Source: an uncultured Methylomirabilota bacterium (GTDB taxonomy: Bacteria > Methylomirabilota > Methylomirabilia > Methylomirabilales > 2-02-FULL-66-22). Taken from it: a stretch of DNA of 64,000 nucleotides. Made by a program: the position numbers and the translations under genes. This document shows, one piece after another, positions 44,677 through 62,390 of the stretch; the first letter of the stretch is position 1; every line of letters starts with the position of its first letter. The stretch is taken from contig CAWJSJ010000005.1 in assembly GCA_963845565.1 (NCBI GenBank), positions 736,001-800,000 of the forward strand, given 5' to 3'. Below the pieces are notes generated by a model. That model saw only the letters and a program-made list of their open reading frames with translations, had not been told where the DNA came from and made no database searches.

Positions 44677-45448
44677 GTTCACCGTCCTCGCGAGATGGTC
44701 GGACTCCTCGAACGATGAGGTCCTCCCCAAACAGGAGTGCCGGCGACAGCAGTTGGCCGGCCACCTGGTCCGTTCGTCGTGTGAGTCGGGTTATCAGGCC
44801 CGCTACCGACGCGACCACGGTCAGTGCCGGCCGAGCCCATGGTGCCCACCCTGTCGTGTCGCGCAGCGCCACCCGAATGTCCCGATTGGTGGCCACGTCC
44901 GTGATCCGGAGACCGGCGCGTGCAAAAAGATACCGGAGTTCGGGGTATCCCACGGGGTTGATGTGCCCCTTGGCGCCATGGAATGCCGTCTCGCGGCTGC
45001 CCGACAGGGTGTCGAAGAAGTCGCACGTCCCCAGCAGCAGGAAGTGGAGGCGAGAGTAGACGTTGAGGATGTTCGGGGTGGTCACGACGAACGCCCCGCC
45101 GGGCCGCAGGATGCGGGCAAACTCACGCGCGAGGTGATGGGGGTTCTCGAGGTGTTCGAGCACCTCGGAGGACACGACACCGTCAAAGGAGGCGTCGACA
45201 AACGGGAGGCGCGCGGCGAGGTCCGCCCGGATGCACGGCACGCCGGAAGCACGGAAGCGCGACGGGCTGACATCGCACGCCACGACCCGGTACCCCCGGC
45301 GGCGCAAGGCATCGCTCAGCGCCCCCTCTCCCGCTCCGGCATCCAGGATCCGAGCGGTCCCACCGGAAGGAAACCAGGCGAGGATGGTCTCGTGGACGTT
45401 GGGTTGGGTGTCCGGGCGGGGCGACCCGGCCGTCGGGAGGTCACTCAT
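44669..45448 (-). CDS. Class I SAM-dependent methyltransferase
   Basis: ILDAGAGEG, EVLEHL, TTPN. Confidence 0.88.
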   Translation of the reverse strand: MSDLPTAGSPRPDTQPNVHETILAWFPSGGTARILDAGAGEGALSDALRRRGYRVVACDVSPSRFRASGVPCIRADLAARLPFVDASFDGVVSSEVLEHLENPHHLAREFARILRPGGAFVVTTPNILNVYSRLHFLLLGTCDFFDTLSGSRETAFHGAKGHINPVGYPELRYLFARAGLRITDVATNRDIRVALRDTTGWAPWARPALTVVASVAGLITRLTRRTDQVAGQLLSPALLFGEDLIVRGVRPSREDGEHA

Positions 45449-46560
45449 CGGTTTCTCGCGATCGTTTCATACAATGCGATCGTCTGGAGCGCACTGTCCT
45501 GCCACGACCATTTCGAGGCGGACAGCGCGCGCGCAGCCTGGGCCATGCGTACGGCCGCGGCCCGGTTCTCCAGGAGGTCGCACACCGCCGCCGCCATCGC
45601 TTCAGGCGCATGGGCGGGGACCAGGCGAGCAGTGATCCCGTCGCGGAGGAACTCGCTGAAGGCGCCCACTGCCGTGGCCACCACTGGGGTTCCCAGGCTG
45701 CACGCGAGGCGCAGCGACGCGCTGTCGGTGATGTCGGAATAATTAAAGACGGCCAGGTCCGTGGCGGCGAAGTACAGAGCCACCTCCGCGTGGGGGACAT
45801 ACCGGGGCCGGAACTCCACGGCGTCCGAGACCCCCGCCCGGGAAATGGCCTCGTGATACTCGGCCTCCGTCCCCACCAGCAGCGGGCCGGCGACCACCAG
45901 GCGCGCATCGGGGTGACGTTCGCGGACCAGGGCGAGAACCCGGAAGAGTTCGGTGAGTCCTTTGTAGGGGCGTATGGCACCGAATGCCAGCAGGAGCGGA
46001 CCGGAAGAGGGAAGCCGTAAACGGCCGCGCGCGGCGGAGGGTGAGGGGAGCGGTGCGGGCGCGAAGAATCCGAACTCGCCAAGATGGATCAAGGCGACCA
46101 CGGGGCGCACGCCCAGTCGCCGGGTCGCAATCCGGACACTCTCGGCGGTATGCGCCACCAGGGCGTCCGCCGCACGAAAGCTGCGCCAGGTCGTCCACGC
46201 TTCCCACGGGCTGCTCTCGTGGCTGCGGATGTTGTGGGCGGTCATGACCAGCGGGGCCCGGCGTCGGGCGGCCGGCCACAGGAAAGCGTCGAAACGGGAC
46301 GACAGCAGGCTCTGGACGTGGATGATGTCCGGAGCGAGTCGGTCGAGGGTGTCCAGGAGGAGTCGAGCGCTCTTCAGGTAGCGCCGTCCGGCGGTGAAGC
46401 AGGGTTCGACCTGGAAACGCCGGGGAAGGCTCGCCAGTTCGAACGCCGAATTGGTCAAGAGGTGGACGTCAACCCCCGCCGCCGCGAGGGCTTCGCACAG
46501 GTTCCAGGCGTAGTGCCCGATACCGCCCCATCCCCCGGTTTCGACCATGGCGACTCTCAC
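45445..46560 (-). CDS. Glycosyltransferase family 4
   Basis: GGIGHY, FGAIRPYKG. Confidence 0.88.
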   Translation of the reverse strand: MRVAMVETGGWGGIGHYAWNLCEALAAAGVDVHLLTNSAFELASLPRRFQVEPCFTAGRRYLKSARLLLDTLDRLAPDIIHVQSLLSSRFDAFLWPAARRRAPLVMTAHNIRSHESSPWEAWTTWRSFRAADALVAHTAESVRIATRRLGVRPVVALIHLGEFGFFAPAPLPSPSAARGRLRLPSSGPLLLAFGAIRPYKGLTELFRVLALVRERHPDARLVVAGPLLVGTEAEYHEAISRAGVSDAVEFRPRYVPHAEVALYFAATDLAVFNYSDITDSASLRLACSLGTPVVATAVGAFSEFLRDGITARLVPAHAPEAMAAAVCDLLENRAAAVRMAQAARALSASKWSWQDSALQTIALYETIARNR

Positions 46561-47567
46561 GGCCGACCCTCCCCCGAGCCGGGGTCGGCGACGGCGCCCG
46601 GCAACTGCCTCAGCAAACGAAAGCAGGCGGCGAGCTTGGGGCCGAGGAGGTGCGCGCGCCGGTGGGAGACCGGCAGATATTTCAGCGCGAGCGCGGGCAT
46701 GCGCGCGAGCGTGTACAGGCCGACGGCTGTTGCGAGAATTCCCGCCGGGACGATTCCCCGGTGCTTCCGGAAATACCGAATATAGCCCAGAAAGTACTCG
46801 ACCTCTCGGACGGAGGTCTGGAGCGTGCTGGCGCCGTGCCAGTGGGCCGCCGCGGCGGTGGGGCAGAAGGCGACGCCATACCCCGCGTCCTGGAGCCGAC
46901 GACAGAGGTCGGTCTCTTCAAAGTACATCCGGAACTCGTCGTCGAATCCGCCGATGCGTCGGAAGGCCTCCCCGCGGATGAGCATGGCGGCCCCGGACAC
47001 CGCCTGGACGGCGGCGGGTTGCGCGACGTCCAATTCACTGTAGTAAAACCGCCGGACCCAGCGGTTTCCAGGAAACAGGGCATGGAACGCAGACAATTCG
47101 CCGAGCGCGAATCCGAGTGTAGGGAACCGCTTGCAGGACGGTTGCGGCTTCCCGTCGCGGCCCGTGAGGCGGGGGCCAACCGCGCCGCACTGCGGGTGGT
47201 CGTCCAGGAAACGACGGAGGGCGATCAGGCTGTCCGGATCGAGCAGGACATCCCCGTTGAGCGCACACAGGTAGCCCGCCGGGAAAACTTGAAAGGCCCG
47301 GTTCAGCGCCACTCCGTATCCCGGGTTGTCCGGATAGCTCACGACCGGCACCTCGGGGTGCGCCGCGCGCAACGCCTCGCAGGTACCGTCGCGGGACCCG
47401 TTGTCCACCACGACAACCTGGGCCAAGAGGCCCGCGGACGCCCGTCGGGCCGCCGTCACGGCTTGCAGGGTCAGGTCTTGCGTATTGTAGCTGACGATGA
47501 TGACAGCCGTGTCCCTCATTGCCGTGCCGGGATTCTCCGCGGCTCGCTGCCCGTGCGCAGCGTTCAT
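46557..47567 (-). CDS. GT2 (WbbL-like)
   Basis: IIVSYN, DNGSRDG, SGAAML, FDDEFRMYFEETD. Confidence 0.88.
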   Translation of the reverse strand: MNAAHGQRAAENPGTAMRDTAVIIVSYNTQDLTLQAVTAARRASAGLLAQVVVVDNGSRDGTCEALRAAHPEVPVVSYPDNPGYGVALNRAFQVFPAGYLCALNGDVLLDPDSLIALRRFLDDHPQCGAVGPRLTGRDGKPQPSCKRFPTLGFALGELSAFHALFPGNRWVRRFYYSELDVAQPAAVQAVSGAAMLIRGEAFRRIGGFDDEFRMYFEETDLCRRLQDAGYGVAFCPTAAAAHWHGASTLQTSVREVEYFLGYIRYFRKHRGIVPAGILATAVGLYTLARMPALALKYLPVSHRRAHLLGPKLAACFRLLRQLPGAVADPGSGEGRP

Positions 47568-48283
47568 GCCTCGACCCGCCGCGCCTTGGCGATCAGCGAC
47601 AGATTCCGCATCGGACAGCAGCGCATGCTGAGCTCCCCGACGGCCCGCAACACGCGGCTGGTGGACGTCGGCAGATCTCCGACGGAGAACAGGGCCTCCA
47701 CGTGGAACCCGGCCTCTCCCAGCGCGGCGCGCAGCGTGCGCGGCGCGAAGTACCGGACATGGCCGTTCTCCCCGGCGCGGTGATCCACGAAAAAGAACTG
47801 CTGCTGCCGGGCCCATTGCAGGAGGTTTCGCCAGTACGCGAGGTTGGGCGTGGTGAGCAGCAAGACGCCGCGCGGACGGAGGATACGCCGACACTCCCCG
47901 AGGAAGCCGAGCGTGTCGAGCAGGTGCTCGACGACTTCCCCGGCGAACACCACGTCGAACTCCCCGTCCGCGAAGGGGACGCCGTGTGCGATGTCGTATT
48001 GCCGATATTCGAAATCCGGCGACACCGCCGCGGGATCGAGGCAGTCGATTCCGCAGCGGCGGATTGCCGCGGGAATCCGCCCGAGGAGTTCTCCCCGACT
48101 GCACCCGATATCCAGGACGGCAGCCGGATGCTCAGCCAACGCCAATGGGAGCACCGACGCGGCGCGACGGTCGAAGGTGACATCGCGGGGTTGCGCGGCA
48201 AAGATCGCCGCATTCTCGGCGTGGGTCGTCATGGGTTCCATCGGCGTCGCGTCGGCCGGCGGCGTCCGGGGTTGACGAGGCAT
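47564..48283 (-). CDS. Class I SAM-dependent methyltransferase
   Basis: VLDIGCSRG, GEVVEHL, TTPN. Confidence 0.85.
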   Translation of the reverse strand: MPRQPRTPPADATPMEPMTTHAENAAIFAAQPRDVTFDRRAASVLPLALAEHPAAVLDIGCSRGELLGRIPAAIRRCGIDCLDPAAVSPDFEYRQYDIAHGVPFADGEFDVVFAGEVVEHLLDTLGFLGECRRILRPRGVLLLTTPNLAYWRNLLQWARQQQFFFVDHRAGENGHVRYFAPRTLRAALGEAGFHVEALFSVGDLPTSTSRVLRAVGELSMRCCPMRNLSLIAKARRVEA

Positions 48284-48287
48284 GCCC

Positions 48288-49256
48288 TCACTCTCCCTCG
48301 GGGCGTGCGGGGACGGCGGCGAGGCGGGCAGCAAGACACTGGAACAGCATCCACCAGGCCGTCCGCTGCGCCGGCCACACGCGCACCGAGTTCCAGAGGC
48401 GCCGGGACGCCTCCGACCACCTGCGCTGGCGGGCGAGTTGGTATCCGTGCCAGTTATGGGTGTCGGCGACCAGGCGACGGCCGGCCGGGCCGAGCGCGCG
48501 GATCTGCTCGGCGAAACGCACCCTGGCCCGGTCGAGCAGCGCGAACCGGCGCCGGTCCCTGGCGGCGGGGTCGGCCGAGAGGCTTCCGGCGTGCACCAGG
48601 CACCCCCCGAGGACATCGGGCGCGTAGGACGCCTCGAATCGGTCCGCGAGACGCAACAGGAACTCCCAATCCTCCAGTCCGACCATCTCAGGGTCTTCGT
48701 CGAACGCCCCCACCGCGTCCAGGCAGGTCCGCCGAAACAAGGGGGCGTGCACGGGAATGAAGTTCCCGTGGATCAGCTGCGGGAAGAGCCACCCCCCGAG
48801 CCGGGGGCGCGCGGCGTACCCGAAGCGTGCCGAGGCCAAGCCGACGGGTCCGCCCTTCTCGTCCACATATTCGATGTCGCAATACGTCCAGGGCGCAGCG
48901 GCGTGCTCCCACACGAGGGGCAGTTGCCGCTCCAGCTTGTGCGGGAGAATCCAGTCGTCCGCGTCGAGGAACATCACCACCTCGCCGCGGGCATGCGCCA
49001 GACCAAGGTTCCGCGCAGCCGCGGGCCCGCGATTGGCCTGCGCGAACCAGCGCACCCGATCCCCAAAGCCCCGGAGCGCCTCCGCGGTGCCGTCGGTCGA
49101 GCCATCGTCCACCACGATGAGGTCCAGGGCACGATGGGTCTGCGACAGGACGCTCTTCACCGCCCGGCCGACAAATGGCGCGGCGTTGAACGCCGGAATG
49201 ACGACGGACACGATCGGTGTGTTCATCGTTCGATGGCCGTTCCCCTTCACCGGCAC
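48288..49256 (-). CDS. Glycosyltransferase family 2
   Basis: VSVVIPAFN, DDGSTD, ARNLG, FLDADD, EDW. Confidence 0.9.
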   Translation of the reverse strand: MPVKGNGHRTMNTPIVSVVIPAFNAAPFVGRAVKSVLSQTHRALDLIVVDDGSTDGTAEALRGFGDRVRWFAQANRGPAAARNLGLAHARGEVVMFLDADDWILPHKLERQLPLVWEHAAAPWTYCDIEYVDEKGGPVGLASARFGYAARPRLGGWLFPQLIHGNFIPVHAPLFRRTCLDAVGAFDEDPEMVGLEDWEFLLRLADRFEASYAPDVLGGCLVHAGSLSADPAARDRRRFALLDRARVRFAEQIRALGPAGRRLVADTHNWHGYQLARQRRWSEASRRLWNSVRVWPAQRTAWWMLFQCLAARLAAVPARPEGE

Positions 49257-49296: not shown

Positions 49297-50748
49297 TCAC
49301 GACCACGCTCGCCTGCAATCCTCGAGGACCTCGTATCTCCAGGCCGATCCGCTGAGATACCCAAGCAGCGCCGCGTACGCCACGCAGGCCCCGGCCAGGC
49401 CAAGCCCGAGATTGGCGGAGGTGTCTGCCCACCACTGCGACCCCACGAAGAAGACCAGGGCGCTCAGGCTCGCTGCTGCGAGCGGCGCCCGAATCGCGGA
49501 CACCAGCTTGAGCTGCCAGGGGCGCAACACAACACACGCCGCTCCGGCCATGATGATCGATGCGAGGAAGCTGGCGGCAGCAAACCCCACGAACCCGACC
49601 AGGGCGACCAGGGCGGTGGCGAGCGCCCACACCGCGGTGGCCCACAGGAGATTCAAATAGAGCACGGTCTTCGCCTGCCCCAAGCCGTAGAGGCCCTGCA
49701 GCAGGAGGTTCACGGGTCCGCCGACGACCGCGGTGAGGCAAAACAAGCGGACGGCAGGAACGGAGGGAAGCCAGGCGCTGCCATAGAGGGCCGGAATCAC
49801 GCGGTCCGCGCTCACCAGCAGCAGCAAGGCTGCCGGAAAGAGGATCGCAGCCACGCGATTGAGCGCGCGCTCCAGCGCGCGCGCGAATGCCTCCGGATTC
49901 TGTTGCAGGGCCGAGAGCGCCGGAAACAGCACCCGACCGGCCACCGCGATCACCTGAAGCGGCATGAACGCCACGCTGGCCGCCCAATTCAGGAACCCCG
50001 CGGCCGCCACACCGCTCCAGGACACGACCAGCGTCGGGACGACGGAATCTCGGGCGGCAATGACCAGCGCGCTTCCCTGAAACGACGCGCCGAACCGCAG
50101 GAGGGGCGCGAGGTCGCGCCATCTCCACCGCAGCGCGGGCCGCCACCGGGTTGCGAGGAGCAAGGCGCTCAGCCCAAGGCAGCGACCCGCCACCGCCCCG
50201 ACCACGAAGCTCCACACGCCGGCGCCTGCCACGGCAAGCGCGACCGCGACCGCGAAATAGGTCACGGTCTCGATGGTCTCCGACGCCATGAGAGGCAGAT
50301 ACGACAACTCGCGCTCCAGCATCACGGCGGAGGGAGTGCGGAGTGCCGCCAAAGGCAGCACGAGGCTGAGTGTGCGGAGCGGGCCAATGGCGTCGGCAGG
50401 GAGATGCAGCCAGCGGGTGAGCGTCGGCGCCAACGCAACCAAGGCCGCCCCCAGCACCACGGCCAGGGCCAGCTGGGCCGTAAAAGCAACCTGCAGCGGC
50501 ATCGCGGTTGCCGATGCCGGGCGCTGAACCAGGGCCGCCCCCACACCGAGGTCCCCGCACGTCGAGGCCAGGGCAACGACAAACCCGACGACGGCATACA
50601 CGCCAAACGTTTCGGGCGTCAGATAACGCGCCAGGAGGATGCCGCCCCCGGCGGTGATCAACAGGCTGCAGGCCCGCTGACCGGCGACCAGCAGGAACCC
50701 TCGCAGGGTTCGGGCGCGAATGTCTTGATGAACAGCGATGGCCAGCAA
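49297..50748 (-). CDS. wzx: Oligosaccharide flippase
   Basis: LARYLTPETFG, DLG..AALVQ, polytopic membrane protein. Confidence 0.88.
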   Translation of the reverse strand: MLAIAVHQDIRARTLRGFLLVAGQRACSLLITAGGGILLARYLTPETFGVYAVVGFVVALASTCGDLGVGAALVQRPASATAMPLQVAFTAQLALAVVLGAALVALAPTLTRWLHLPADAIGPLRTLSLVLPLAALRTPSAVMLERELSYLPLMASETIETVTYFAVAVALAVAGAGVWSFVVGAVAGRCLGLSALLLATRWRPALRWRWRDLAPLLRFGASFQGSALVIAARDSVVPTLVVSWSGVAAAGFLNWAASVAFMPLQVIAVAGRVLFPALSALQQNPEAFARALERALNRVAAILFPAALLLLVSADRVIPALYGSAWLPSVPAVRLFCLTAVVGGPVNLLLQGLYGLGQAKTVLYLNLLWATAVWALATALVALVGFVGFAAASFLASIIMAGAACVVLRPWQLKLVSAIRAPLAAASLSALVFFVGSQWWADTSANLGLGLAGACVAYAALLGYLSGSAWRYEVLEDCRRAWS

Positions 50749-50751
50749 CTC

Positions 50752-52155
50752 CTATGCGGGGCGACCCGCCGACCGCGGTGTCTCCTGCAAGAGCGGCAGG
50801 GTGGCGATGATCCCGGTCAGGAACCAGAACGGCTCCATGATGCGTACGATGATGAAGGTGTTGGCCCCGATCCCGTGCGCCAGTAGCGCGACGACGCCGG
50901 CGAGGTACCCCAGCGTCAGCGCGTGAAACCGGGTGCCGCGGGACTGACGGTAGGCATCCCACCCCATCCGAAGAATCCGCCACAACAGCCACAGAAACGC
51001 GGCGAGTCCCGCCAGGCCCGTCTCGACGAGCACACGAACGTACTGGGCATCCATGAAGGCGAAGCCCGCGGCGCCGTACCCGAAGACCGGGCGCCGGCTC
51101 CATCCCTCGACTCCCTGCTTCCAGCTGTCCAGGCGCGCGCTGGTGGAGGTGTCCAGCCGGGTGTCCCCGACCCGATACTCGCCGCGATCCGCCTTGTCGT
51201 GCAGGGTGTAGTTATATCGCTCCACGACCTGTTTCGGAAAGACGAGCGGGCCGGCCAGGACCACCACCCCCACGCCGACGAGGAGGATCAGGCGTCGCGG
51301 GCTCAGCAGGATGAGGGTGGCCAGCATGGGGAGGGTGGCCAGCCAGGACGTGCGGGACAGGGTGTACAGCAGCGGAACCGCCGCCAGACCGGCAAACGCG
51401 AACCAGAGGAGCTGACCCGGAAGCGACCGGGCCGCGAGCGCGTGCGCGAGGACGAGGGCCAGCATCAGCACCAGGTAGCCGCCGAAGGTGTTGGGCTCGC
51501 CGAATTTTCCTTCGAAGGGGGCCGCCACCCGTTCGCCGGAGGGGATCTGGGCGATGCCCATGGCGGCGGAGACGGCGCAGGTGACCAGGGCGGTGGCCAG
51601 CAATCGGCGCAGCGCCCGCTCATCCCGGGTGTAGTTCACGGCCATGAAGTACACGACAAAGTATTCCAGGTACTTGAGGACGAAGAAGAACCCCCGCGCC
51701 GGGCGCACGTTGCCGACGAAGACGCCCAGGAGCGTGGCCACGACCAGCGCGACGCTGTAGGCGAGGATGGGAGCGTTGAGCGGCGTGCGGCGAACCAGTC
51801 CCAGTTCTTTGAAGAGGGCCGTCCTGGCGACCCACGCCAGGGCGACGGTGGTGAGGATCAGGTCCTCCACCCGGAGGACCAGCACGTCCCCCTTGGCCTC
51901 CGGTTTCCCGATGGAGATTCCGCCCACGCTCCCCAGGACGATTTCCGGGGACAGCAGCATGGACAGCAGGATGATGTGCAGGGCGAGTTCGGTGTGCAGA
52001 ACGCTGACGAACAGCAGAACCACCAGGAGGCTGGCGCCCAGGCTGAGGCCCGGCCCCGTCTGGGCGATGATCAGACCCCCGCCGGCAGCCAAGAGCAGCA
52101 CGAACAGCGCCAGGGGGAGCGGGCCTGCCGACGTGTCGCGCGGGTGTGCCGCCAT
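50752..52155 (-). CDS. O-antigen ligase / Wzy polymerase family protein
   Basis: EPNTFGGY, TLSR, R..SW...PVFGYG; many TM helices. Confidence 0.85.
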   Translation of the reverse strand: MAAHPRDTSAGPLPLALFVLLLAAGGGLIIAQTGPGLSLGASLLVVLLFVSVLHTELALHIILLSMLLSPEIVLGSVGGISIGKPEAKGDVLVLRVEDLILTTVALAWVARTALFKELGLVRRTPLNAPILAYSVALVVATLLGVFVGNVRPARGFFFVLKYLEYFVVYFMAVNYTRDERALRRLLATALVTCAVSAAMGIAQIPSGERVAAPFEGKFGEPNTFGGYLVLMLALVLAHALAARSLPGQLLWFAFAGLAAVPLLYTLSRTSWLATLPMLATLILLSPRRLILLVGVGVVVLAGPLVFPKQVVERYNYTLHDKADRGEYRVGDTRLDTSTSARLDSWKQGVEGWSRRPVFGYGAAGFAFMDAQYVRVLVETGLAGLAAFLWLLWRILRMGWDAYRQSRGTRFHALTLGYLAGVVALLAHGIGANTFIIVRIMEPFWFLTGIIATLPLLQETPRSAGRPA

Positions 52156-52292
52156 GCTGGTCCTCGCCTACCTGCGGCTATCCCGGTACCGGCGGACGGG
52201 GCGGAGATGGACGCGGCCACGCTGTGAGGCCCGAGGAGAGGCCTCCATCGCCGGCGTGGTCGGCGCCGCCCGCCGCACGACGAGGCCCGGCG

Positions 52293-54551
52293 TCACGAAA
52301 AGAGCCCTCGAATCCTTCCACGCAGGGACGCGGGACGGGACGGCGGCTCGGCCCGCTCGGCTCGCCCGGGTTCGTGGCCGTAGGCATACCGGTAGTACTG
52401 CAGCTCTTCGTAGTCCGGACTGGTCTCGGCCTTGAGACCCGTCAGGACGACACCCAGGACCCGACCGCGCACGTTTTCAAGCAGCACCTTGGCGCGCTTC
52501 AGCGCCGACCGCGCAATCTTCCCCACCCGATACACCATCAGGGTCCCGTCCGTTTTCGAGGCCAGGATCGCCGCGTCGGTGACCGGGAGGATGGGGGGGC
52601 AGTCGAAGATGACAAAGTCGAACTGCTCCCGGAACTGGGCAATCAGATCCTGCATGCGCTGGGAGTTGAGGAACTCGGAGGGATTGGGCGGCGGCGTGCC
52701 GCTCGACAGCAAGAAGAGTTTGTCCACGTTGGGCATCGTCATCAGTTTCTCGACCCCCAGCGGCCCCAGCATGAGATCGGTCGCGGTCCGCAGGCACTCC
52801 CGCCAGTCCTTGTTCCCGACGATGACCTCGGTGAGTCCGGGATCTCGCGGGATCCCGAAGGCGTGATGCAGGAACGGCTTGCGCAGGTCGGCCTCGACCA
52901 GGAGCGTGCGCTTGCCCATCTGTGCGATGGTGATCGCCAGGTTGATGGCGGTCGTCGTCTTGCCTTCCATGAGGGACGCGCTTGTCACGCAGAGCGTCTT
53001 GACGCTCTTCTCGAGGGAGAGAAACTCCACGTTGGTTCGGAGCGAGCGATAGGCCTCGGCCACCGTGGACCGCGGGCTGAGGAGGGACACCAGAAACGGA
53101 CGCATGGTGCCGAGAGGCCCGCCTTCCTCCTCGTCCTCCGGCGGGGCGAGCAAGGGGTCCCGGACCGGGTCGATCAGCGGGATCAGGCCGAGCACCGGGG
53201 TCTCCAGATAGCTCTCGACGTCCTGGATGGTTCCGATGGAGGTATCCAGCGATTCCAGAACAAAGGCCAAGACCAGCCCCACCGTGAGGCCGATCAGCAG
53301 ACCGGCGAATACCTTCCCGGCGGTCTGCGCGGGATTCATGGGACTCCCCGGGACCGTGGCCGGCCGGACCAGGCTCACCTCCTCCACCTGCTCTCGCTCC
53401 TTGATCTGCACCTCTTGGAGCTTCGACCGCAAGGTCGAGAGGAGATTCTCATTCTGGGTGAGCTCGCGCTGGAGTTGCGCATACTGTCGGGTCAAATCCG
53501 GCAGGGCGCGCTGTTCCTGCCGGACGCGCTGGATCTGCCGCTGCACATCGCCGGCGCGTTCCTCAAGAATCTGGTTCTTGATCCGGAGCTCACGGAGGAG
53601 GGCCTCCCGCGCGGTCCGGACGCGCGCCTCCAGGCTCTCCCGGATGCTGGCCATGCGCGCATCCAGGTCGCGGATCTGGGGGTGTTGCGGTGTGAGGGTG
53701 ACCAGGAGATTCTCCCGCTCCAGGCTCAAGTCCACCAGTGCGCCGCTCAGCTTGCCGATGCCGGGGTCCCCAGCCTCGGCGAGCAGACGCGCGGGGAGGG
53801 CGCCTGCCGCAGCCGCTTGCTGCACGGTCTGGATCTGGCCGGCGATCTCGTCCTGCTCTCGTCGGATCTTTTCGGCCTCGCCTTCCAGGACGCCGAGGCG
53901 CGCCACGGAGGCGGTGGTCTCTTCGGTGAGGGAGACGAAGCCGCGGGTCTCCTTCAGCGTCCGAATGCTATCCTCCGCCTGCCGGACGCGAACGCCCACC
54001 TCGCGGGTTTGCTCCTCGATGAAGCGCCGAGCCTCCAGGATCTTCCGGTTGCGGAGCGCCGCGTTCTCCGCTTGGTAGGCCTGCGCCACGGCGTTGGCGA
54101 CCCGGGCGGCCTGCGCCGGCTCCCGCGAGGCGACCGTGACGTTGATCAGCGTGGTGTTCTCTTCCGGGGTCGCCGTGACCTGGTTGCGCAGTTCGCCGAG
54201 GAGCTGCACGTGCACGGGATCCTGTTTGATGGCCTCGGAATCGAGCGTCGCCGGGATCAGGCGCAGCGCCTTGGCCGCCCGCTCGAGGACGGGGAAGCTC
54301 CGAATCACGGCTGCCTGGGTGGCCGGCGCATCGCCCTGGGAGAGCGAGATCGTCTCCACCAGCAGACCGACGAGCGTCGTGGTCCGCTCGAACTTGACCA
54401 CCGCGGTCGCCTGGTAGAGCGGATCGGGTCGCTGCACCTCGGCGAACAGCAGGGCCAGCAGCCCGAAGGCGGCGGTGACCAGCGCCACGCTCCACAGCCG
54501 CTTTCGCAGGATCCGCCAGTAGTCGCGAAGATTCAGATCGTACTGTGGCAT
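52293..54551 (-). CDS. wzc: Polysaccharide co-polymerase / tyrosine autokinase
   Basis: LRDYWRIL, EAYRSLRTN, EGKTT Walker A, DCPP, Tyr-rich tail. Confidence 0.92.
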   Translation of the reverse strand: MPQYDLNLRDYWRILRKRLWSVALVTAAFGLLALLFAEVQRPDPLYQATAVVKFERTTTLVGLLVETISLSQGDAPATQAAVIRSFPVLERAAKALRLIPATLDSEAIKQDPVHVQLLGELRNQVTATPEENTTLINVTVASREPAQAARVANAVAQAYQAENAALRNRKILEARRFIEEQTREVGVRVRQAEDSIRTLKETRGFVSLTEETTASVARLGVLEGEAEKIRREQDEIAGQIQTVQQAAAAGALPARLLAEAGDPGIGKLSGALVDLSLERENLLVTLTPQHPQIRDLDARMASIRESLEARVRTAREALLRELRIKNQILEERAGDVQRQIQRVRQEQRALPDLTRQYAQLQRELTQNENLLSTLRSKLQEVQIKEREQVEEVSLVRPATVPGSPMNPAQTAGKVFAGLLIGLTVGLVLAFVLESLDTSIGTIQDVESYLETPVLGLIPLIDPVRDPLLAPPEDEEEGGPLGTMRPFLVSLLSPRSTVAEAYRSLRTNVEFLSLEKSVKTLCVTSASLMEGKTTTAINLAITIAQMGKRTLLVEADLRKPFLHHAFGIPRDPGLTEVIVGNKDWRECLRTATDLMLGPLGVEKLMTMPNVDKLFLLSSGTPPPNPSEFLNSQRMQDLIAQFREQFDFVIFDCPPILPVTDAAILASKTDGTLMVYRVGKIARSALKRAKVLLENVRGRVLGVVLTGLKAETSPDYEELQYYRYAYGHEPGRAERAEPPSRPASLRGRIRGLFS

Positions 54552-54568
54552 GCGATCGCCTCGCCTCT

Positions 54569-55666
54569 CTAGAAGCTCGCGATAGCCTTGATCGAGAGGA
54601 CCGTGTACAGCGGTTGGTTGATGAGATCGAACGTCGGACGGATCTGGGCGACGAAGGCGTTCCAATTCGCAATCGGCGTCCGCGGGACAAAGACCACGTC
54701 GTTCGGCTTTAGATACTGGTCGATGCGCTTCTCGCCCTCGAGAAGCAGACGACGCAGATCCACCGTGAGGATCTCGGTGACCCCGTCTGCCGAACGGATG
54801 ATCGCCGCCTGATCGAAGAGCGCCGCATCCGTCCAACCGCCGACCTGCGCGACAAGGTGAGCCAGCGTGAGATTGGGGACATAGGGCGCGGGGCCGGGTG
54901 TCTTGACTTCTCCCAGCAGGAAGACCCGCCGCTCTTCGCCCTTGACCTGCTCCGGGACGAAGATGGCGTCGCCGGCGTCCAGGACGAACTCCTGGGACAC
55001 GTCGCCGTCCTGGAGGAAGCGAAACACGTTGACCGTGTACGTCTTGCCGGAGGCCCGGCTGATCCGCACGCGGTCCAGGCTGGCGTTCTGCTGAAAGCCG
55101 CCGGCCTTGGCAATGGCTTCCATCAGGGTCACGCGCCCGGTCAGGGGGATGGTGCTGGCCGAGGCCTTGGCCTGGGTGCCCACCGCGCCGAACACCGTCA
55201 CCTTCTTGCTATGGTACTCCTTGACCAGGACGTCGACCGTTGGCGCGCGAAAGAAAACGGACAGATCCTCGGCGATGGCTCGGCCGGCTTCGTCCGTCGT
55301 CAAGCCGTCCACCTTGGTCTCGGCCAGAATGACCCTGACCGTTCCGCCGGCGCGGACCGCGGTCTGAATCTTCTCCTGCGTCGGGCCGCGGCTGACGGTG
55401 ATCTCCAGGACGTCGCCGGGCCCGAGGCGGTACTGCGGCACACCTGCGCTGGTGACGAAGGCCCGGTTCTCCGTGACGGGCGGCGGGAGTTCCGTGGATG
55501 CGTCGGTAGGGGCCGGGGCGGCCGCCACCCGGGGCTGGGGGAACGTCGGCGCGTTCACGGAAGTTGACCGCGACGGTTTCTCCAGGCCCCCGCAGCCGGC
55601 CAGTGCCAGAGACAGGAGGACTGCGCTGGCAACATACGATGTTGGTTTCACCGGTCTACCTCCCAC
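54569..55666 (-). CDS. wza: Polysaccharide export lipoprotein with SLBB domains
   Basis: LAGC lipobox, YRLGPGDVL, EAIAKAGG, DVVFVP. Confidence 0.88.
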   Translation of the reverse strand: MGGRPVKPTSYVASAVLLSLALAGCGGLEKPSRSTSVNAPTFPQPRVAAAPAPTDASTELPPPVTENRAFVTSAGVPQYRLGPGDVLEITVSRGPTQEKIQTAVRAGGTVRVILAETKVDGLTTDEAGRAIAEDLSVFFRAPTVDVLVKEYHSKKVTVFGAVGTQAKASASTIPLTGRVTLMEAIAKAGGFQQNASLDRVRISRASGKTYTVNVFRFLQDGDVSQEFVLDAGDAIFVPEQVKGEERRVFLLGEVKTPGPAPYVPNLTLAHLVAQVGGWTDAALFDQAAIIRSADGVTEILTVDLRRLLLEGEKRIDQYLKPNDVVFVPRTPIANWNAFVAQIRPTFDLINQPLYTVLSIKAIASF

Positions 55667-55764: not shown

Positions 55765-56895
55765 TCATCCGGCATCTTCTTTGTCTGCCGCCCGTGTTGG
55801 TTCTGTATGCCCCAAGGCGAGTCGCGCCATCTGTCGCCAGTGGGTCATCCATGCGTGACGAGCGGGGCATCCCCCGTCCGAAAACCCCGTGGCGAACACC
55901 CTGCCCGCTGGGAAAAGGAGTTGCCGCGCGAACGCGGCCCTGGCCGGCCATCCGGGGAGACAGGCGAACGTCAGGCCGTAGCGAAGATGTCCGGCTCCCT
56001 CTCCGCGTCCGGTCTGCGCCAGGATGCGGCGCTCCCCGGGGAAGAGGTACTGCGGCCGGAGCGCCGCGCGAGTCTCCGGCACCGGATCCACTCCCAGAAC
56101 TGCGAGGCGGTCGAGGCAATACCACACGCTCCGGCGCACCCCGGCCGGACTGCGGAGGCACGCCGGGGGCGACGGCGGCCACGCCTGCAGGGCCGCCAGG
56201 AAATCGGCCATCCACCGGACTCCCTGCATGCCGTGGTGGTGCACCGCATGAACCGCGAGATACTGGAGATAGTCCTGGGGACCCAGCGTCCAGGCTGGGG
56301 CCCCTGCCAGCGTCAGGGGCTGTCGGCGTCGCCAGATTGTTTCGAAGGCTTGAGGCCACAGGGCGCCGCGTGCGGGCAGCCGCGTGGTGTTGAGGAGGCC
56401 GGTGTGGAGATCGATGCTGTGGGTGAGGTCGGGGGCGAAGAAGTCCTCTTCTCCTCGGAGGTCGTTCCGATACCCCAAGCGGCGCAGCACGTCCCCGAAT
56501 CGCGGGCCGTCGGCCGGGGCGACCAGAAGGTCCACATCGTCCAGCGGGCGAGGGATCCCCGCCGGGTAGACCAGGCGTTGCAGTGCCGGACCCTTGAGCA
56601 GCAGAATCGGGATCCCCTCGCCGGAGGCGGCCTCAATCGCCAAGGCGGCGGCCCGCTCCAGGCGCACGGATCGCGCCCCGCTCGCCAGGGTCGCCCGGCG
56701 CAGCGCCTCCAACACGGCGGGCGGGACCGCACGGGCCGCCGCGGTTTGCAGCCCGGCATAGAGGAGCGGTGCGACGCGCCAGCGACGCGACGCCGTCAGG
56801 ACCTCCGGCCACACCACGGGTGAGCGGAGGCGCTCCGCCAGCCTGCCCGCGAACTCTGTGCGACGCAGGCCGACCAGCGTTCCGTACCAGAGCAC
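55765..56895 (-). CDS. Nucleotidyltransferase family protein (NTP_transf_5-like); start uncertain
   Basis: LLKGPAL...RPLDDVDLLV, IDLH, HAVHH. Confidence 0.8.
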   Translation of the reverse strand: MLWYGTLVGLRRTEFAGRLAERLRSPVVWPEVLTASRRWRVAPLLYAGLQTAAARAVPPAVLEALRRATLASGARSVRLERAAALAIEAASGEGIPILLLKGPALQRLVYPAGIPRPLDDVDLLVAPADGPRFGDVLRRLGYRNDLRGEEDFFAPDLTHSIDLHTGLLNTTRLPARGALWPQAFETIWRRRQPLTLAGAPAWTLGPQDYLQYLAVHAVHHHGMQGVRWMADFLAALQAWPPSPPACLRSPAGVRRSVWYCLDRLAVLGVDPVPETRAALRPQYLFPGERRILAQTGRGEGAGHLRYGLTFACLPGWPARAAFARQLLFPAGRVFATGFSDGGCPARHAWMTHWRQMARLALGHTEPTRAADKEDAG

Positions 56896-56913
56896 CGATC
56901 CGCCAGTTTGGTT

Positions 56914-56942
56914 TTGACTTCCCCACAGGCGCGGGCTATGTT
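56914..56942 (+). promoter_or_regulatory. Sigma70-type promoter for the PqqD gene (probably leaderless transcript)
   Basis: TTGACT-N17-TATGTT ends 8 nt before ATG 56951; no RBS. Confidence 0.6.
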
Positions 56943-56950
56943 GACTGGCC

Positions 56951-57286
56951 ATGGCACACGCGTCCGACAGCAACCGCTATCAACGTACCGACGAGTTCGT
57001 CGCCAGGACCATTGCCGGCGAGACGGTGCTGGTTCCGATCCACCGGCAGATCGGGGACCTTGAATCCATCTACACACTGAACGAGGTGGCCACGTTCATC
57101 TGGGAGCGACTGGCGGCCGCCGCCACGCCGGCCGCCCTCGCCCTCGCTGTCGAGGACACCTTTGCCGGCAGCCCGGCGGAGATACGTGCGGACCTCGAAG
57201 AATTTCTGGGCCACCTGCTCGACCTCCGTGCAATCCGATCCGTTGCGGATACGTCCGATGGTTTGGACGTCACCCCTCCGCGCTGA
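56951..57286 (+). CDS. PqqD family protein / RiPP recognition element
   Basis: VARTIAGETVLVP...IYTLNEVATFIWERL...DLEEFL. Confidence 0.88.
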   Translation: MAHASDSNRYQRTDEFVARTIAGETVLVPIHRQIGDLESIYTLNEVATFIWERLAAAATPAALALAVEDTFAGSPAEIRADLEEFLGHLLDLRAIRSVADTSDGLDVTPPR

Positions 57287-57295: not shown

Positions 57296-58171
57296 TCACG
57301 CCTTTCCAAGTTGAGCCTGGACCCAGTCCACCTCACGGCCGTCGGCCGGAACGGTGAGCCATCCGCACGGCACCTCGCGGCAGATCCGCCCAAGCGTCTC
57401 CAGGGTGTTTCCCATCCGTTCCGCATCCCATACCGCAGGGAACGATTTGGCGAACACGAGCGCGGTCGCCGTTGCCGGGCGAAGCGGTTCGAACGCCACG
57501 TCGGTTCCCTGGCGCAGTAGGTAGACTGCCCGGACCGGCGCCGCGTCTCCGCCGACCTCCGGATTCTCGCCGAACCACGGGGTCGGGTGCATGCGAAGGC
57601 CCTCCGGGCTCGCCTCCAAGACGACCCGGTCGTCATTCAGGATCGTGGCGCCCGCGGCGCGCCAGAGGCGAGCCGCCGTGCTCTTGCCCGCCCCGGACGA
57701 TCCGACAAACAGGACGCCGGCGCCGTGCCAGTGCACGCCGCAGGCGTGGACCAGGAGTGCGTCATGCTCGGCCAAGAGGTGGCGGAAGAGCAAGTCCTCC
57801 AGGGGGTACTCCAGCGGGTATCTGGACGACGGATCGGGGACGCGCTTTGGGTCCATCACGAGGCACCCCGTGGTGCCGGATGCGTCCAGTCGGAGTGCCC
57901 GGTCCGCGCGGCCGGTCGTCGCATCCTCTCCGACGCGGATCGTCCATCGGCCATCGTCCCGATAAAAGCTCGCCACACCGCCGGCTCGGAACACCGGCGG
58001 CGCCGAGCGGCGTCCGGTGGAGTCCCACACCATCTGCAGGGTCAGATCGGAATCCGCTGCTGGCGCGAAGAATTTCGGGTGTCCGGCGTCGAGCTGCCAC
58101 CGCCCAGGATCCATCTCCCCATGGAGCGAAACGCACACGGGGCCGATCCGGAGGGTGAATCGATTAGGCAT
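57296..58171 (-). CDS. HprK-related P-loop kinase
   Basis: LVHACGV, GSSGAGKST Walker A, LNDDR, TPW. Confidence 0.78.
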   Translation of the reverse strand: MPNRFTLRIGPVCVSLHGEMDPGRWQLDAGHPKFFAPAADSDLTLQMVWDSTGRRSAPPVFRAGGVASFYRDDGRWTIRVGEDATTGRADRALRLDASGTTGCLVMDPKRVPDPSSRYPLEYPLEDLLFRHLLAEHDALLVHACGVHWHGAGVLFVGSSGAGKSTAARLWRAAGATILNDDRVVLEASPEGLRMHPTPWFGENPEVGGDAAPVRAVYLLRQGTDVAFEPLRPATATALVFAKSFPAVWDAERMGNTLETLGRICREVPCGWLTVPADGREVDWVQAQLGKA

Positions 58172-58319: not shown

Positions 58320-58505
58320 TCAGGAGCCCCTGTTGTCCCTGCATTTTGCAACGCTCCGGATATCGCACGGGTTTGGGAACGTCAGGTTCTTTCCGCCTCC
58401 ATTGCTTCGCTTGCAATTGGGGACCGCGGCCGTTTCCTCGCCGGCGAGGTCGATTCGTTCGAGGGAGGGTTTCACATAGTCGCGTTTCGTCGAGTCCACG
58501 GTCAT
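58320..58505 (-). CDS. Putative RiPP precursor peptide 1 (61 aa)
   Basis: MTVDSTKRDYVKPSLERIDLAGEETAAVPNCKRSNGGGKNLTFPNPCDIRSVAKCRDNRGS; YxxPxL leader motif; paralog of peptide 2. Confidence 0.85.
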   Translation of the reverse strand: MTVDSTKRDYVKPSLERIDLAGEETAAVPNCKRSNGGGKNLTFPNPCDIRSVAKCRDNRGS

Positions 58506-58562
58506 AGCCCACCACCTATCCAAGAATGGGGAAACAGGTCATCGGGGAGTTCTTTGAGGCCG

Positions 58563-58650
58563 TCACGACCCCAGCGATTCCCTGGAAAGTACGCCAAGCA
58601 CGCTCCAGAATAATGCATCGCGGCCAACTCGATCTCTGCCCAGGCTGCGG
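58563..58650 (-). pseudogene. Decayed third precursor copy
   Basis: RDALFWSVLGVLSRESLGS* aligns without gaps to RIEWWWDIFGVRCRESRGS*. Confidence 0.55.
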
Positions 58651-58672
58651 TGCGGGGCTAAAGGCGCCGACC

Positions 58673-58873
58673 TTAAGATCCCCTTGACTCGCGGCACCGG
58701 ACGCCGAAGATATCCCACCACCACTCGATCCGACACGGGTTGGGATAGGTCTGGCTTCTTCCCCCGCCGGTGTCCCGCTTGCAGTTGGGGACGGCGGCGG
58801 TCTCCTCGCCGACCAGTGTGATCCGCTCGATCGTCGGCTTTCGGTAGGGGAGTCTGGGCTGCGTTGGGTTCAT
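58673..58873 (-). CDS. Putative RiPP precursor peptide 2 (66 aa)
   Basis: MNPTQPRLPYRKPTIERITLVGEETAAVPNCKRDTGGGRSQTYPNPCRIEWWWDIFGVRCRESRGS; ATGA overlap with the rSAM stop. Confidence 0.85.
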   Translation of the reverse strand: MNPTQPRLPYRKPTIERITLVGEETAAVPNCKRDTGGGRSQTYPNPCRIEWWWDIFGVRCRESRGS

Positions 58874-60005
58874 CGAGCTGCCGCCTTCCCTGTCCAATCC
58901 CGGGGCTCGCGCGGGGGGCCGAACGCCCCAGCGCGGAGTTTGGCGAGGTCACACAGGAACGGCACTCGGGTTTCGGGGTCTCCAGACTCCAGCACGGCCC
59001 ATCCCGCGCACTGGTCGCAGGCGGAGTGCAGATCGCAGGTGTCGCAAGGCATGGTCTTGGTCCGCGCCTGCCGACGCATGGCGGGGAAATGCTCGTCCCA
59101 CCCCTCCCGGAACGTCCCCTGGCGCAAGTCGTACGCCGGCTCACGAAGCAGCATGCAGGGGACGAGGCGCCCGTACGGATCGATGTGGAACGAGTGAAGG
59201 TACGCACCGCAGGTGATCAGGTCGGCCCGTGCCTCGACCCGGGAGGCTTTCGCGAACTCCAACCGATACGCGGCCGCCCGCTTCTCCTCGGCGCGCTTCC
59301 AGGGCCAGCACTTGCTGAGGCGAAAGCCGCACGCCTGCCGGCCCGGCCGCGCCGTCCAGGCGGCAGTTCACCAGCGGGTCCCACTGGAACTCCAACCCGT
59401 ATCCGGCCGCCAGGGCGCGCAGGCCGTCCAGGTCGTCATGGTTCAGTGTGGTCGGCACGGTCTTCAGTCGCAGACGGACCCGGCGGTCGAGGAGCAACTC
59501 GATGCCGCGGAGACACCGCCGGAATGAACCGGGGACACCCGTCACACGCTCGTACACTTCGGGGGTGCTCCCGTAGATCGATACCTCGACCACCAGGGGC
59601 GGCCATTCCGCCAAGAGGTCGGCGAGACGAGGGGTGACGGCGGTGCCATTGGTGAAGAGCGTGACCAGTAGTCCGCGCCGCTTCATGTGGAGATAGATCT
59701 CGCGGATGTCGGACCGGAGCAGCGGTTCGCCGCCCGTGAGAAGCATCCAGAGACATCCGCGATCCACCACCTCGTCCGTGAGCCGGCGAATCTCGGCGGC
59801 GGTGAGCTCGTGCCGTTGCAGCGCCGCGATCGCCGCCGGATTCGTTCACGAAACAGTGGGCGCAGCGGAGGTTACAGCGGAACGTGACCTCGAGGCTGCC
59901 GTCCAGAGGGATCCGATCCGCCGAGACGCGGGCGCCGATCCGACCGGCGAACGCCGAGTAGGAGAGGTGCGGGACGGATTGACAGGCGGTCTCTGTGGCA
60001 TGCAC
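58870..60005 (-). CDS. Radical SAM/SPASM domain peptide maturase (two frameshifts, near 59820 and 59295)
   Basis: CNLRCAHC, LTGGEPLL, FTNG; SPASM CGA..IDPYG.LVPC..CDTCDLHSACDQC..C. Confidence 0.88.
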
Positions 60006-60151: not shown

Positions 60152-61174
60152 CTAGCTCGGATTCCTCCCCGAGAACGCCTCTGTAATGTAGAGCAGCGTG
60201 TTGGCGGACAGATCCACCCGACGGCGTGGCTCGAGGGCTTCGCCTTTCGGCCCGATGGCGATCTCGACCACCGGCCGAAGGGGAAAGGTCGGGTTGGTGG
60301 CCACGATCCGCGCGATCTCGGTGGAGTTGAGGCGCACGTAGCTGCCCACCGGGAAGGCGGACAGACCGCGGATGAGCCCTTTGAGCGCGCGGTCGGGGAA
60401 CTTCGCCCGCCCGGATGTCATGAGCTCCTTGATCACCTCGAAGGGTCCCCGGCGGCTGCGATAGGGGCGGGTGTGTGTGAGGGCCTCGTAGGCGTCTGCC
60501 AAACCGATGATCTTCGCGTACTCGTGAATCTCCTGCCCCATCAGGCCGCGAGGGTAGCCGCTGCCGTCTTCGCGTTCGTGCTCCTGCAGGACGACGTTGG
60601 CCAGCCACTCGAACTCCGCGCCCAGGCCGTGCAGGATCCGAAACCCTTTCTCGGGATGCCGACGCACCAGGGCGGTCTCTTCCTCGGTGAGCGCCTCCGG
60701 TTTGTCGAGGATCCGATTCGGGACGATGACCATGCCGACATCGTGCAGGCAGGCGGCAAGACCCAGCCACGGCAATTCCTCGGGGCGACAGCCCGCCCCC
60801 TGCCCGATCTTGATGGCGAAGACGCCGGTGTTGACCATGTGACGCGCCAGATCGTAGCGCCCCTCACCATCTTCCAGGGCCTGGACGAGCAGCGCGTCAT
60901 CGGTCGCGATGGCCTCCACCATCCCGGCCGCCACGCGCTGGAGTGTGCCGATCCGGAAGGGAGTCCCTGCGGCCGCAGCCTCCATGGCACGCGCCACCTC
61001 TTGCAGCGCCAGCGGGTAGTGGAGCGGATCGGGTTGGGCGGCGGGTTGGGGCGCAGGCGGAATAGCCGGCGCCGCCTGGGCGGACCCCGCCGCGGCGACA
61101 GAAAACGACGCCTCGGGAGTGGGGTCGCGATGGTCCGATGCCGATTTGCGGACGAGATCGCTTAAGCGAACGAT
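60152..61174 (-). CDS. HD-GYP domain protein (probable start ATC at 61174; first canonical start 60997)
   Basis: LHDVG, HPEKG, HEREDGSGYP, DAYEAL...RPYR; AGAAGGAGG RBS before an in-frame ATC. Confidence 0.85.
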   Translation of the reverse strand: MVRLSDLVRKSASDHRDPTPEASFSVAAAGSAQAAPAIPPAPQPAAQPDPLHYPLALQEVARAMEAAAAGTPFRIGTLQRVAAGMVEAIATDDALLVQALEDGEGRYDLARHMVNTGVFAIKIGQGAGCRPEELPWLGLAACLHDVGMVIVPNRILDKPEALTEEETALVRRHPEKGFRILHGLGAEFEWLANVVLQEHEREDGSGYPRGLMGQEIHEYAKIIGLADAYEALTHTRPYRSRRGPFEVIKELMTSGRAKFPDRALKGLIRGLSAFPVGSYVRLNSTEIARIVATNPTFPLRPVVEIAIGPKGEALEPRRRVDLSANTLLYITEAFSGRNPS

Positions 61175-61286
61175 GGCGCGCCCTCCTTCTCCGGTTATGC
61201 AGCCATCCGAATCGATCTCTGTGCCGGCAACACCGTGTGCGTCGCTGTCGCTGCGCCCCGGCCGGCGCGGCGTGTCCGGGTGCGGT

Positions 61287-62093
61287 CTATCGAGTCTCCC
61301 CGAGGCCGTTGAGGACCCGCTTCACCAACGGGGCATCCACGATTTTAGCGGCGTGGACGGACCCTTCGAGGAGGCACAGATCGCATAGTGTGTTGAGGCG
61401 GCGCGGCACGCCGCCGGCGTGCTCCCAGACGAGGCGGATCGCCTCGTCGTCAAACAGGGACTGGGCGGCGCCCGCCCGCTCCATGCGGAAGGCGACGTAG
61501 GCGGCCGCCTCGGCCTGGCTGAGCGGCTTCAAATGGTGGCGAAGGGCGATCCGCTGATCCAAGGGCTTGATCCGGCCGATCATGTCGGTGATCTCCGGCT
61601 GGGCCATGAGGATCAGCGTGAGCAGGAACCGATCGTTCAACTGGAAGTTCAGCAGCATCCGGAGTTCTTCGAAGACGTCCGGGTCCCGGATGCAATGGGC
61701 CTCGTCCACCACGAGGACGGTCTCTTTCCCCTCGCGCAGATTGGCCACCAATCGGTCGTTCAGGGACCGCAGGAGCGCAACCTTGGTGGTTCCGGATGGG
61801 GTGATGCCGAATTGAAGATCGATCTCCTCGAGAAAATCGAGGCTGGGAAGCGACGGGTTCGTCACGAGGCCGACGTCATACTTTTCCTGGGCCAACTGGA
61901 GAATGAAGGTCCGACTCAGGGTCGTCTTGCCGCACCCGACATCGCCGACCAACAAGGCGGCGCCCTTGTTGTGCTGCACCGCGTACATCAGTCGGGCCAA
62001 GCCTTCGCGGTGCTGCGCCGACAGGAAGAAGAAGTTGGGATCAGGGACGTTCTGAAACGGCGCGGTGGCCAGTCTCCAGTATCCCTCGTACAT
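61287..62093 (-). CDS. ExeA/GspA-like AAA ATPase
   Basis: MYEGYW..PFQNVPDP, GDVGCGKT, VVDEAH, GGVPRRLNTLCD. Confidence 0.88.
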   Translation of the reverse strand: MYEGYWRLATAPFQNVPDPNFFFLSAQHREGLARLMYAVQHNKGAALLVGDVGCGKTTLSRTFILQLAQEKYDVGLVTNPSLPSLDFLEEIDLQFGITPSGTTKVALLRSLNDRLVANLREGKETVLVVDEAHCIRDPDVFEELRMLLNFQLNDRFLLTLILMAQPEITDMIGRIKPLDQRIALRHHLKPLSQAEAAAYVAFRMERAGAAQSLFDDEAIRLVWEHAGGVPRRLNTLCDLCLLEGSVHAAKIVDAPLVKRVLNGLGETR

Positions 62094-62390
62094 CCCACGG
62101 TCCTCGCTTGGCTCGATGCCGCCGATTGCCGGGAATTCACCCATTATGAAAACGGGCACACCACAACGCCGCCTCCCCTGGAGGCCCGTGGCTGCCCCGA
62201 CTCGGAGGGCACCCTATCATACGGCCCAAAGGAATCAAGCGAAAATTTTCGCGTGGGAGCAACGTGATACCGTCCCGCACCGGCCGAATGGCCCCCGGAC
62301 CGAACGCCACGACGTGCCTGGGGCCGGAAGTCTCTTCGGGGCGCCGCCGGCCCGCCAGGAGGAAAAATCCGCTCGGCGTCCATTTTTTTC

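Follow-up and report, generated by a model that had tools for sequence, protein, structure and literature searches.

We find two adjacent genes for small, cysteine-bearing peptides in an uncultured Methylomirabilota bacterium, within a 64,000-nucleotide stretch of contig CAWJSJ010000005.1 that we call the window, in a cassette that joins a radical-SAM/SPASM enzyme to an HprK-like kinase, a stand-alone PqqD/RRE protein and a PF14907 nucleotidyltransferase. Taken as a whole, this arrangement is best explained, with a probability that we put at roughly 50%, as a radical-SAM variant of the phosphorylated lasso peptide and LPP pathways, an undescribed RiPP pathway. A lasso-type RRE would bind the YxxP leader; the radical-SAM enzyme would form at least one cysteine thioether; the kinase would phosphorylate the invariant C-terminal serine, to whose phosphate the PF14907 enzyme would add a nucleotide or sugar; and a SipW-like peptidase whose gene lies elsewhere in the genome would cut after Thr25, giving a cell-surface or matrix component made together with Wzy-type polysaccharide. 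The earlier note on this DNA, which read the peptides as substrates for sacti- or ranthipeptide-like crosslinking, left out the C-terminal serine, kinase, nucleotidyltransferase, RRE and SipW-like peptidase, all of which point to phospho-glycosylation. New here are the tandem of a Trp-type and a swappable second precursor, the unlinked peptidase, and the fixed distance from cysteine to terminal serine. No radical-SAM cassette with such a kinase, nucleotidyltransferase and peptidase was described in the literature searched, which covered few of the subscription papers that are home to radical-SAM RiPP atlases.

The cassette reads along the minus strand as an ExeA-like ATPase and an HD-GYP protein (60152..62159), the radical-SAM/SPASM enzyme, precursor 1, precursor 2, the kinase, the opposite-strand RRE and the nucleotidyltransferase, followed directly downstream by polysaccharide export genes for Wza, Wzc, a Wzy/O-antigen ligase-like protein and Wzx (49297..55666) and then by about 20 kb of glycosylation genes (28029..49256) encoding glycosyltransferases, methyltransferases, a sugar aminotransferase, a deacetylase, a GT4-family initiating transferase and a GATase-type asparagine synthase (36717-38621). 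The order from the radical-SAM gene through precursor(s), kinase, RRE and nucleotidyltransferase to wza is conserved in relatives. The HD-GYP and ExeA-like genes adjoin the cassette in close relatives and some distant ones, and, of 24 genome loci, were seen in two besides the six with Wza/Wzc in the fetched DNA. Divergently upstream of the ATPase, at about 62270-64000, lie a spermidine synthase and an ORF that we take to be S-adenosylmethionine decarboxylase-like; the same pair seems present upstream of the ATPase in genome G010.

Precursor 1 (58673..58873, minus strand) encodes 66 residues, with a predicted leader of residues 1-25 and a core of residues 26-66 that holds three cysteines, a Trp-rich 12-residue loop and a Gly-Ser end; precursor 2 (58320..58505, minus strand, ATG at 58505) encodes 61 residues with the same scaffold and a polar 7-residue loop. 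The shared motif is as the earlier note wrote it, loops included, and the 12-codon block common to both genes has five differences, all synonymous and at exactly the codons that it listed. Its count over that block is circular as a sign of purifying selection, because the block was chosen for amino-acid identity; purifying selection itself is nonetheless borne out by the unbiased comparison of all 45 alignable codons, loop excluded, which gives 25.25 synonymous differences over 33.3 sites (pS 0.76) and 18.75 non-synonymous differences over 101.7 sites (pN 0.18; Fisher p=4e-9). Synonymous sites are saturated between the two genes, inside the identical block too (pS 0.56), so the identity of the block is not the result of recent gene conversion; the duplication is therefore old, and the identity reflects selection. 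A codon alignment of 29 distinct homologous genes gave pN/pS below 1 in every region (junction 0.05, Cys1-Cys2 0.24, tail 0.36, leader 0.40, loop 0.56), the pairs being not independent and two divergent genes and a frameshifted one being left out.

Both genes are thus conserved peptide genes under selection. A protein search with the precursors returned 25 relatives among 25 candidates, and their own genome holds no third copy. The claim that they are real translated substrates holds for the selected genes, for the leader/core layout and for the tie to a radical-SAM/SPASM cassette in many genomes, with translation itself a prediction; the two peptides are almost certainly the substrate of the cassette. 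An exact contig of 200 nucleotides, with no mismatch, from one metatranscriptome library spans 58325-58524 and so takes in precursor 2 together with its ribosome-binding region. No other exact piece of the locus was listed for that run, and since contigs can neither show strand nor exclude DNA, the contig is a weak hint of expression.

Among close relatives, defined as the window, 4 genome loci and 26 metagenome loci (31 in all), 38 precursors were read in 29 loci, the two misses being cut by contig ends. All 38 end in Gly-Ser and 37 have exactly three cysteines, the exception being a frameshifted copy. The loop between Cys2 and Cys3, described earlier as variable, is the least conserved part, but it is still under purifying selection (pN/pS 0.45 for the Trp type, 0.60 for the Gly type and 0.31 for the DI type) and falls into discrete conserved classes rather than being hypervariable. 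Two copies occur in nine loci. The leading copy is of the 12-residue Trp-rich type in eight of these and a frameshifted Trp-type gene in the ninth; the one behind it has a short Gly-rich or DI-type loop. Single-copy loci hold the Gly-rich type in 19 of 20 cases, and the lone Trp-type gene among them stands at a contig end. The second slot, in which precursor 2 sits, is exchanged between strains. One locus (L026), which matches the window with 99% identity at the RRE and nucleotidyltransferase and 95% at precursor 1, has a Gly-type second gene that is 68% identical over 122 nucleotides; two others (L027 and L032), about 90% identical to the window elsewhere, have a DI-type second gene (87%). 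The loop classes are not monophyletic in a loop-free tree, itself weakly supported. The locus amounts to a natural experiment in which one enzyme set meets two substrates of the same scaffold and very different loops, with the leader peptidase intact on another contig.

Beyond this family, the radical-SAM enzyme had matches in 37 of 251 genomes of the phylum (E<=1e-45), and 20 of these 37 regions were fetched as a distant set. A precursor profile, built with 14 of the 20 precursors that these loci yielded, found them in 19 of the 20, the remaining locus being truncated by the end of its contig; the last residue is Ser in 17 and Thr in 3. The other six were new to the profile, and with seven from low-scoring loci (seven of eight newly fetched, the eighth, from G217, being left out) they make 13 precursors found only after profile building, all 13 of which end in Ser, against 6.2% of 2058 coding-like ORFs of this genome; the genomes are related, so these counts are not independent. 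At E<=0.001 the profile matched 37 of the 251 genomes, a tally that includes G217 and some weak matches. In an alignment of 37 precursors no position is invariant apart from the leader Pro and the first Cys of the core, and the leader Tyr/Trp stands 19-22 residues before Cys1, with one row mis-scored by an extra leader Cys. The C-terminal Ser is the most conserved feature besides the first Cys.

The RRE (56951..57286, plus strand, 111 residues) is inverted relative to the cassette, and its nearest solved structures are lasso and LPP RREs: the best PDB matches of its alignment are TbiB1, LppB and PbaB1, ahead of PqqD proper. It and the nucleotidyltransferase are each the sole copy of their family in the genome. 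A conserved sigma-70-like promoter (TTGACT, 17 nt, TATGTT; 56914..56942, plus strand) ends 8 nt before the RRE start codon and was matched in 19 of the 20 close loci that include the region; the transcript may be leaderless. The RRE ATG overlaps the probable nucleotidyltransferase ATG on the other strand (window 56914-56954), which places the promoter inside the 5' end of the nucleotidyltransferase gene and makes the RRE transcript antisense to the kinase.

The leader places Tyr at -16, Pro at -13, a hydrophobic Ile at -11, Glu at -2 and Thr at -1. LppA has the same register, and LppS cuts it after Thr-1 with the help of the RRE, as described in the available text of PMC13381572. Of the distant loci, 16 of 20 include a SipW-like gene of this kind; among close loci it is present in 3 of 31, and the 64-kb window lacks it. 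The genome encodes one, unlinked, on another contig (G000:C2:385858-386358; L072:1862-2359), 59% identical to the copy inside the cassette of G018 (L024) and with Ser, His and Asp kept. Its spot is syntenic with the region that holds the whole cassette in G018, and G004 has an unlinked copy beside the same neighbour. The orphan gene lies about 6 kb from genes for QueF, a response regulator and a sensor kinase, which flank the whole cassette in G018, and its site may mark a former position of the cassette. In another locus (L052) the peptidase is fused to the nucleotidyltransferase. Cleavage at Glu-Thr|Ala by the unlinked enzyme, which would act in trans, is reasonably probable; G009, a genome 76% complete, yielded no peptidase copy, which counts against the overall explanation.

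The radical-SAM/SPASM gene (58870..60005, minus strand) encodes about 376 residues in relatives, without an N-terminal RRE, and is read in three frames in this assembly. Together with the lack of a peptidase in the window, this could mean a decaying locus in which the enzyme is a pseudogene and the peptidase lost, a reading that is scarcely credible and already largely refuted. The indels are missing from contigs of all four DNA runs, which are one base shorter near 59290-59293, one base shorter again near 59822-59825 and one base longer at 59997; the gene is whole (376 residues) in G004, whose orthologue we used for protein work, and in most metagenome loci; other genes of the window look broken into frames too, as in an error-prone assembly; and the peptidase orthologue on contig C2 is intact. 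The frameshifts look like assembly errors. Transporter genes at 5319-9134 and 18947-23577 also seem to be split over several frames, which fits single-base assembly errors like those of the radical-SAM gene.

The kinase (57296..58171, minus strand, 291 residues) is HprK/ScmC-like with a His...GKST...Asp-Asp catalytic motif, and the nucleotidyltransferase (55765..56973, minus strand, true start probably about 56954) is of the PF14907 (NTP_transf_5), PsmN/LppN kind with DxD intact. Among loci with a match, the kinase motif (GKS/T) is present in 38 of 45 and the DxD in 29 of 34, the misses including truncated genes and divergent spacings. According to the available portions of PMC6993621 and PMC9266682, PadeK and PsmK phosphorylate the C-terminal Ser of the paeninodin and pseudomycoidin precursors, and attachment of one or two hexoses to the phosphate requires PsmN. 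LppK and BsfK, kinases of systems with this leader register or RRE type, act on Ser3 of the core instead, Thr being accepted by BsfK and not by LppK (PMC10368454 and PMC13381572, as far as the available text of each goes), and this speaks against the C-terminal site. The predicted cores, however, begin with eight positions free of Ser/Thr, and no Ser other than the last is invariant in the close family; the C-terminal site is favoured on these grounds, and phosphorylation of the terminal Ser is likely. The Thr ends of three of the 20 distant precursors weigh against the explanation as a whole. Addition of a nucleotidyl or sugar group to the terminal phosphate is only slightly favoured; activity of LppN was not detectable in a heterologous host, in the available text of PMC13381572, which is a further point against.

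In the radical-SAM enzyme seven SPASM cysteines are invariant in 72 sequences; a set of seven leaves one iron site open, which is the case in CteB and equally in MftC, and the pattern is not diagnostic of chemistry. No NCBIfam cut-off was passed, those of the sacti- and ranthipeptide families included. The best scores were for the mycofactocin maturase MftC (103 of 265 bits) and the heme b synthase AhbD (101 of 500), both decarboxylating enzymes, and the curated thioether-forming families also lay below cut-off (StsB 79/625, PapB 64/340 and AlbA 62/850 bits). A structure model (pLDDT 89.8) matched the folds of SuiB, BlsE, PqqE, MoaA, SkfB, CteB and anSME at 14-21% identity, the top Foldseek match being the C-C cross-linker SuiB (TM 0.66, 16% identity), ahead of the thioether enzymes SkfB and CteB. 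Low identity to any solved structure, SuiB as the best fold match and MftC and AhbD as the top family scores all count against the preferred explanation. The family comprises 1565 proteins at E<=1e-40 among 8000 scored, two homologues of 62-66% identity being labelled candidate division NC10; because it is large and without a close solved structure, its chemistry may be new.

Cys1, invariant at a fixed distance from the leader, favours a Cys-directed reaction. The reading put forward in the earlier note, a classical sacti- or ranthipeptide with each of the three cysteines converted to a thioether bridge by the radical-SAM enzyme, has in its favour the constant three cysteines of the close family, the invariant Asn and Gly that flank them there as possible acceptors, the seven-Cys SPASM domain, and SkfB and CteB among the fold matches. 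Across the 37 aligned precursors, however, the spacing is 9-18 from Cys1 to Cys2 and 3-13 from Cys2 to Cys3; 4 of the 37 have only two cysteines, a subfamily without the middle one; no fixed acceptor residue is conserved outside the close clade; the StsB, PapB and AlbA scores are low; and kinase, nucleotidyltransferase and terminal Ser are left unaccounted for. Because the inner spacing is variable and the middle Cys dispensable, three fixed thioethers are disfavoured, and we consider them unlikely: Cys-bearing precursors beside a radical-SAM/SPASM enzyme stand from that claim, and three thioethers are only one option. That the enzyme makes a Cys thioether at all is an even call. The layout is most likely one radical-made link and one disulfide that closes a loop, for which SkfA, with one thioether and one disulfide, is a precedent (PMC8326336, in its available text). 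Two-Cys members (L065, L069, L070, L071, L094-L101) have an acidic, aromatic leader and a short core with a Ser end, and several adjoin a methyltransferase.

In 28 of the 37 precursors the distance of the last Cys from the end is exactly 6 residues, and in 33 it is 5-7, the two-Cys subfamily included; this fixed distance to the terminal Ser leaves room for a C-terminal ring or decarboxylation. The enzyme could, then, act at the C-terminus or oxidise a residue: decarboxylating the terminal (phospho)serine, joining it to the last Cys, or making a formylglycine aldehyde from Cys or Ser, with the cysteines otherwise forming disulfides or metal ligands. The MftC and AhbD scores and the fold matches to BlsE and anSME agree with this, and anSME converts Ser or Cys to formylglycine (PMC8326336, again in its available text). 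But none of these matches comes near its cut-off and all are of a kind that SPASM enzymes give in general, the kinase could simply be using the fixed distance as a recognition element, and a role would still be needed for an invariant Cys1 19-22 residues from the leader Tyr; we judge such chemistry improbable. A carbon-carbon aromatic cross-link of the SuiB or cyclophane type, through the Lys that directly follows Cys1 in most precursors or through the Trp-rich loop (precursor 1 has three Trp), would suit the top Foldseek match. It is very unlikely: most precursors lack Trp, including nearly all single-copy ones and precursor 2, whose core has neither Trp nor Tyr, and SuiB is barely ahead of enzymes of unrelated chemistries.

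What the product does is suggested by gene position alone, which points to a probable cell-surface or matrix role. Of 24 genome loci, 6 have Wza/Wzc inside the DNA that was fetched, many being cut by contig ends, and several complete-looking cassettes have other neighbours; a count this low means that the link to polysaccharide is not obligatory. This tally and the lack of an ABC exporter among the 32 window ORFs scanned against Pfam both count against the proposed pathway. Other arrangements were also seen. In L052 (G022:C310) the RRE lies upstream in the same orientation, the precursors are two in tandem, and the cassette again comes directly before wza-wzc-wzy; large secreted-type proteins (beta-propeller/IPT or peptidase C25) lie inside the cassettes of L053, L056, L057 and L059, between peptidase and nucleotidyltransferase or precursor. 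The LPP authors speculate on a surface or matrix role (PMC13381572, in the available part), and the available texts of PMC13381572 and PMC6993621 leave open what phosphorylated lasso peptides and LPPs do, why capsule loci house them and which reaction PF14907 enzymes carry out. A more specific version, in which the phosphorylated last Ser of a radical-SAM-cyclised RiPP would be the attachment point for sugars or Wzy-type polysaccharide, the Trp-rich copy would serve as adhesin or as hydrophobic anchor, and the second, swappable copy as a surface label of the strain, is quite doubtful; if true, the capsule or matrix polymer would be primed by a peptide, and the presence of phospho-lasso and LPP clusters in capsule loci would be explained.

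How far does the proposed pathway coincide with known ones? LPP systems (LppA/B/K/S/N/D, Bacillota; Popov et al. 2026, PMC13381572, compared through its available text) likewise combine a stand-alone RRE, a kinase resembling HprK and an NTP transferase in one cluster with a SipW-like leader peptidase, a YxxP leader with Glu-2/Thr-1 in the same register and one to three precursors, and they too sit in capsular polysaccharide loci. The LPP product, however, is linear, without a ring-forming enzyme, whereas a radical-SAM/SPASM gene is a fixed part of the cassette here, which adds it together with three cysteines. The consensus YxxPxVLxHQxIxFETxxS with its phosphorylated Ser3 is matched only in part: Tyr-16, Pro-13, Glu-2 and Thr-1 agree, and the first five core residues lack Ser. 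The invariant C-terminal Ser, the peptidase unlinked in this genome and the other phylum set the cassette apart further. The 32 window ORFs scanned include no MsbA-like exporter of the kind found in LPP clusters. The main text of PMC13381572 makes no mention of radical SAM, and its supplements only hold a Radical_SAM column name in a domain matrix.

The phospho-lasso peptides (paeninodin with PadeK; pseudomycoidin with PsmK and PsmN; Bsf; PMC6993621, PMC9266682 and PMC10368454, all in their available text) share with the cassette the lasso-type RRE and leader motif, the conserved C-terminal Ser, the His-Lys-Asp-Asp kinase motif (PMC9266682) and a PsmN-like NTP transferase. Unlike them, the precursors here have no conserved ring-acceptor Asp/Glu. 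The genome, 98.7% complete, has no match to PF13471, the B2 transglutaminase-like leader peptidase, and no lasso macrolactam cyclase was found: the asparagine synthase 20 kb away, tried as one, was rejected, as it has a GATase domain and fails NF033535 (263/525) while passing TIGR01536 (491/267).

Sacti- and ranthipeptides (SkfA/SkfB, AlbA, CteB, PapB) have a Cys-bearing core, a radical-SAM enzyme with an auxiliary cluster domain and RRE dependence in common with the cassette, in which, by contrast, the RRE stands as a protein of its own, no family cut-off is reached by the enzyme and the Cys spacing is variable; to our knowledge, a kinase, nucleotidyltransferase and signal-peptidase-like partner are not part of such systems. 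SynChlorMet (ScmC, ScmD, ScmE, ScmF; TIGR04248-04251, PF27840) is a bioinformatic definition, by name in no paper found in the literature searched, and resembles the cassette in combining PqqD, a radical-SAM/SPASM enzyme and an ScmC-like kinase; PF27840 occurs in 16-51% of the members of the Atlas clusters nearest our kinase, and some relatives of the cassette also carry two or three radical-SAM genes. All scores for the window nevertheless lie far below cut-off (ScmC 33/125, ScmE 84/400, ScmF 72/400), and there is one radical-SAM gene here, not two. Related cassettes with two or three radical-SAM paralogues and a single precursor were seen in L060, L062, L063, L064 and L066, and those of L062 and L063 were below the SynChlorMet cut-offs when scored. 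The cassette therefore falls outside the LPP and paeninodin-type classes, though it may work like either, and membership of the sacti-/ranthipeptide or SynChlorMet classes is not established. It would combine the tailoring module of the LPP and phospho-lasso pathways with a scaffold enzyme of a third kind and so be a test of whether function lies in the terminal phosphoserine and not in the ring.
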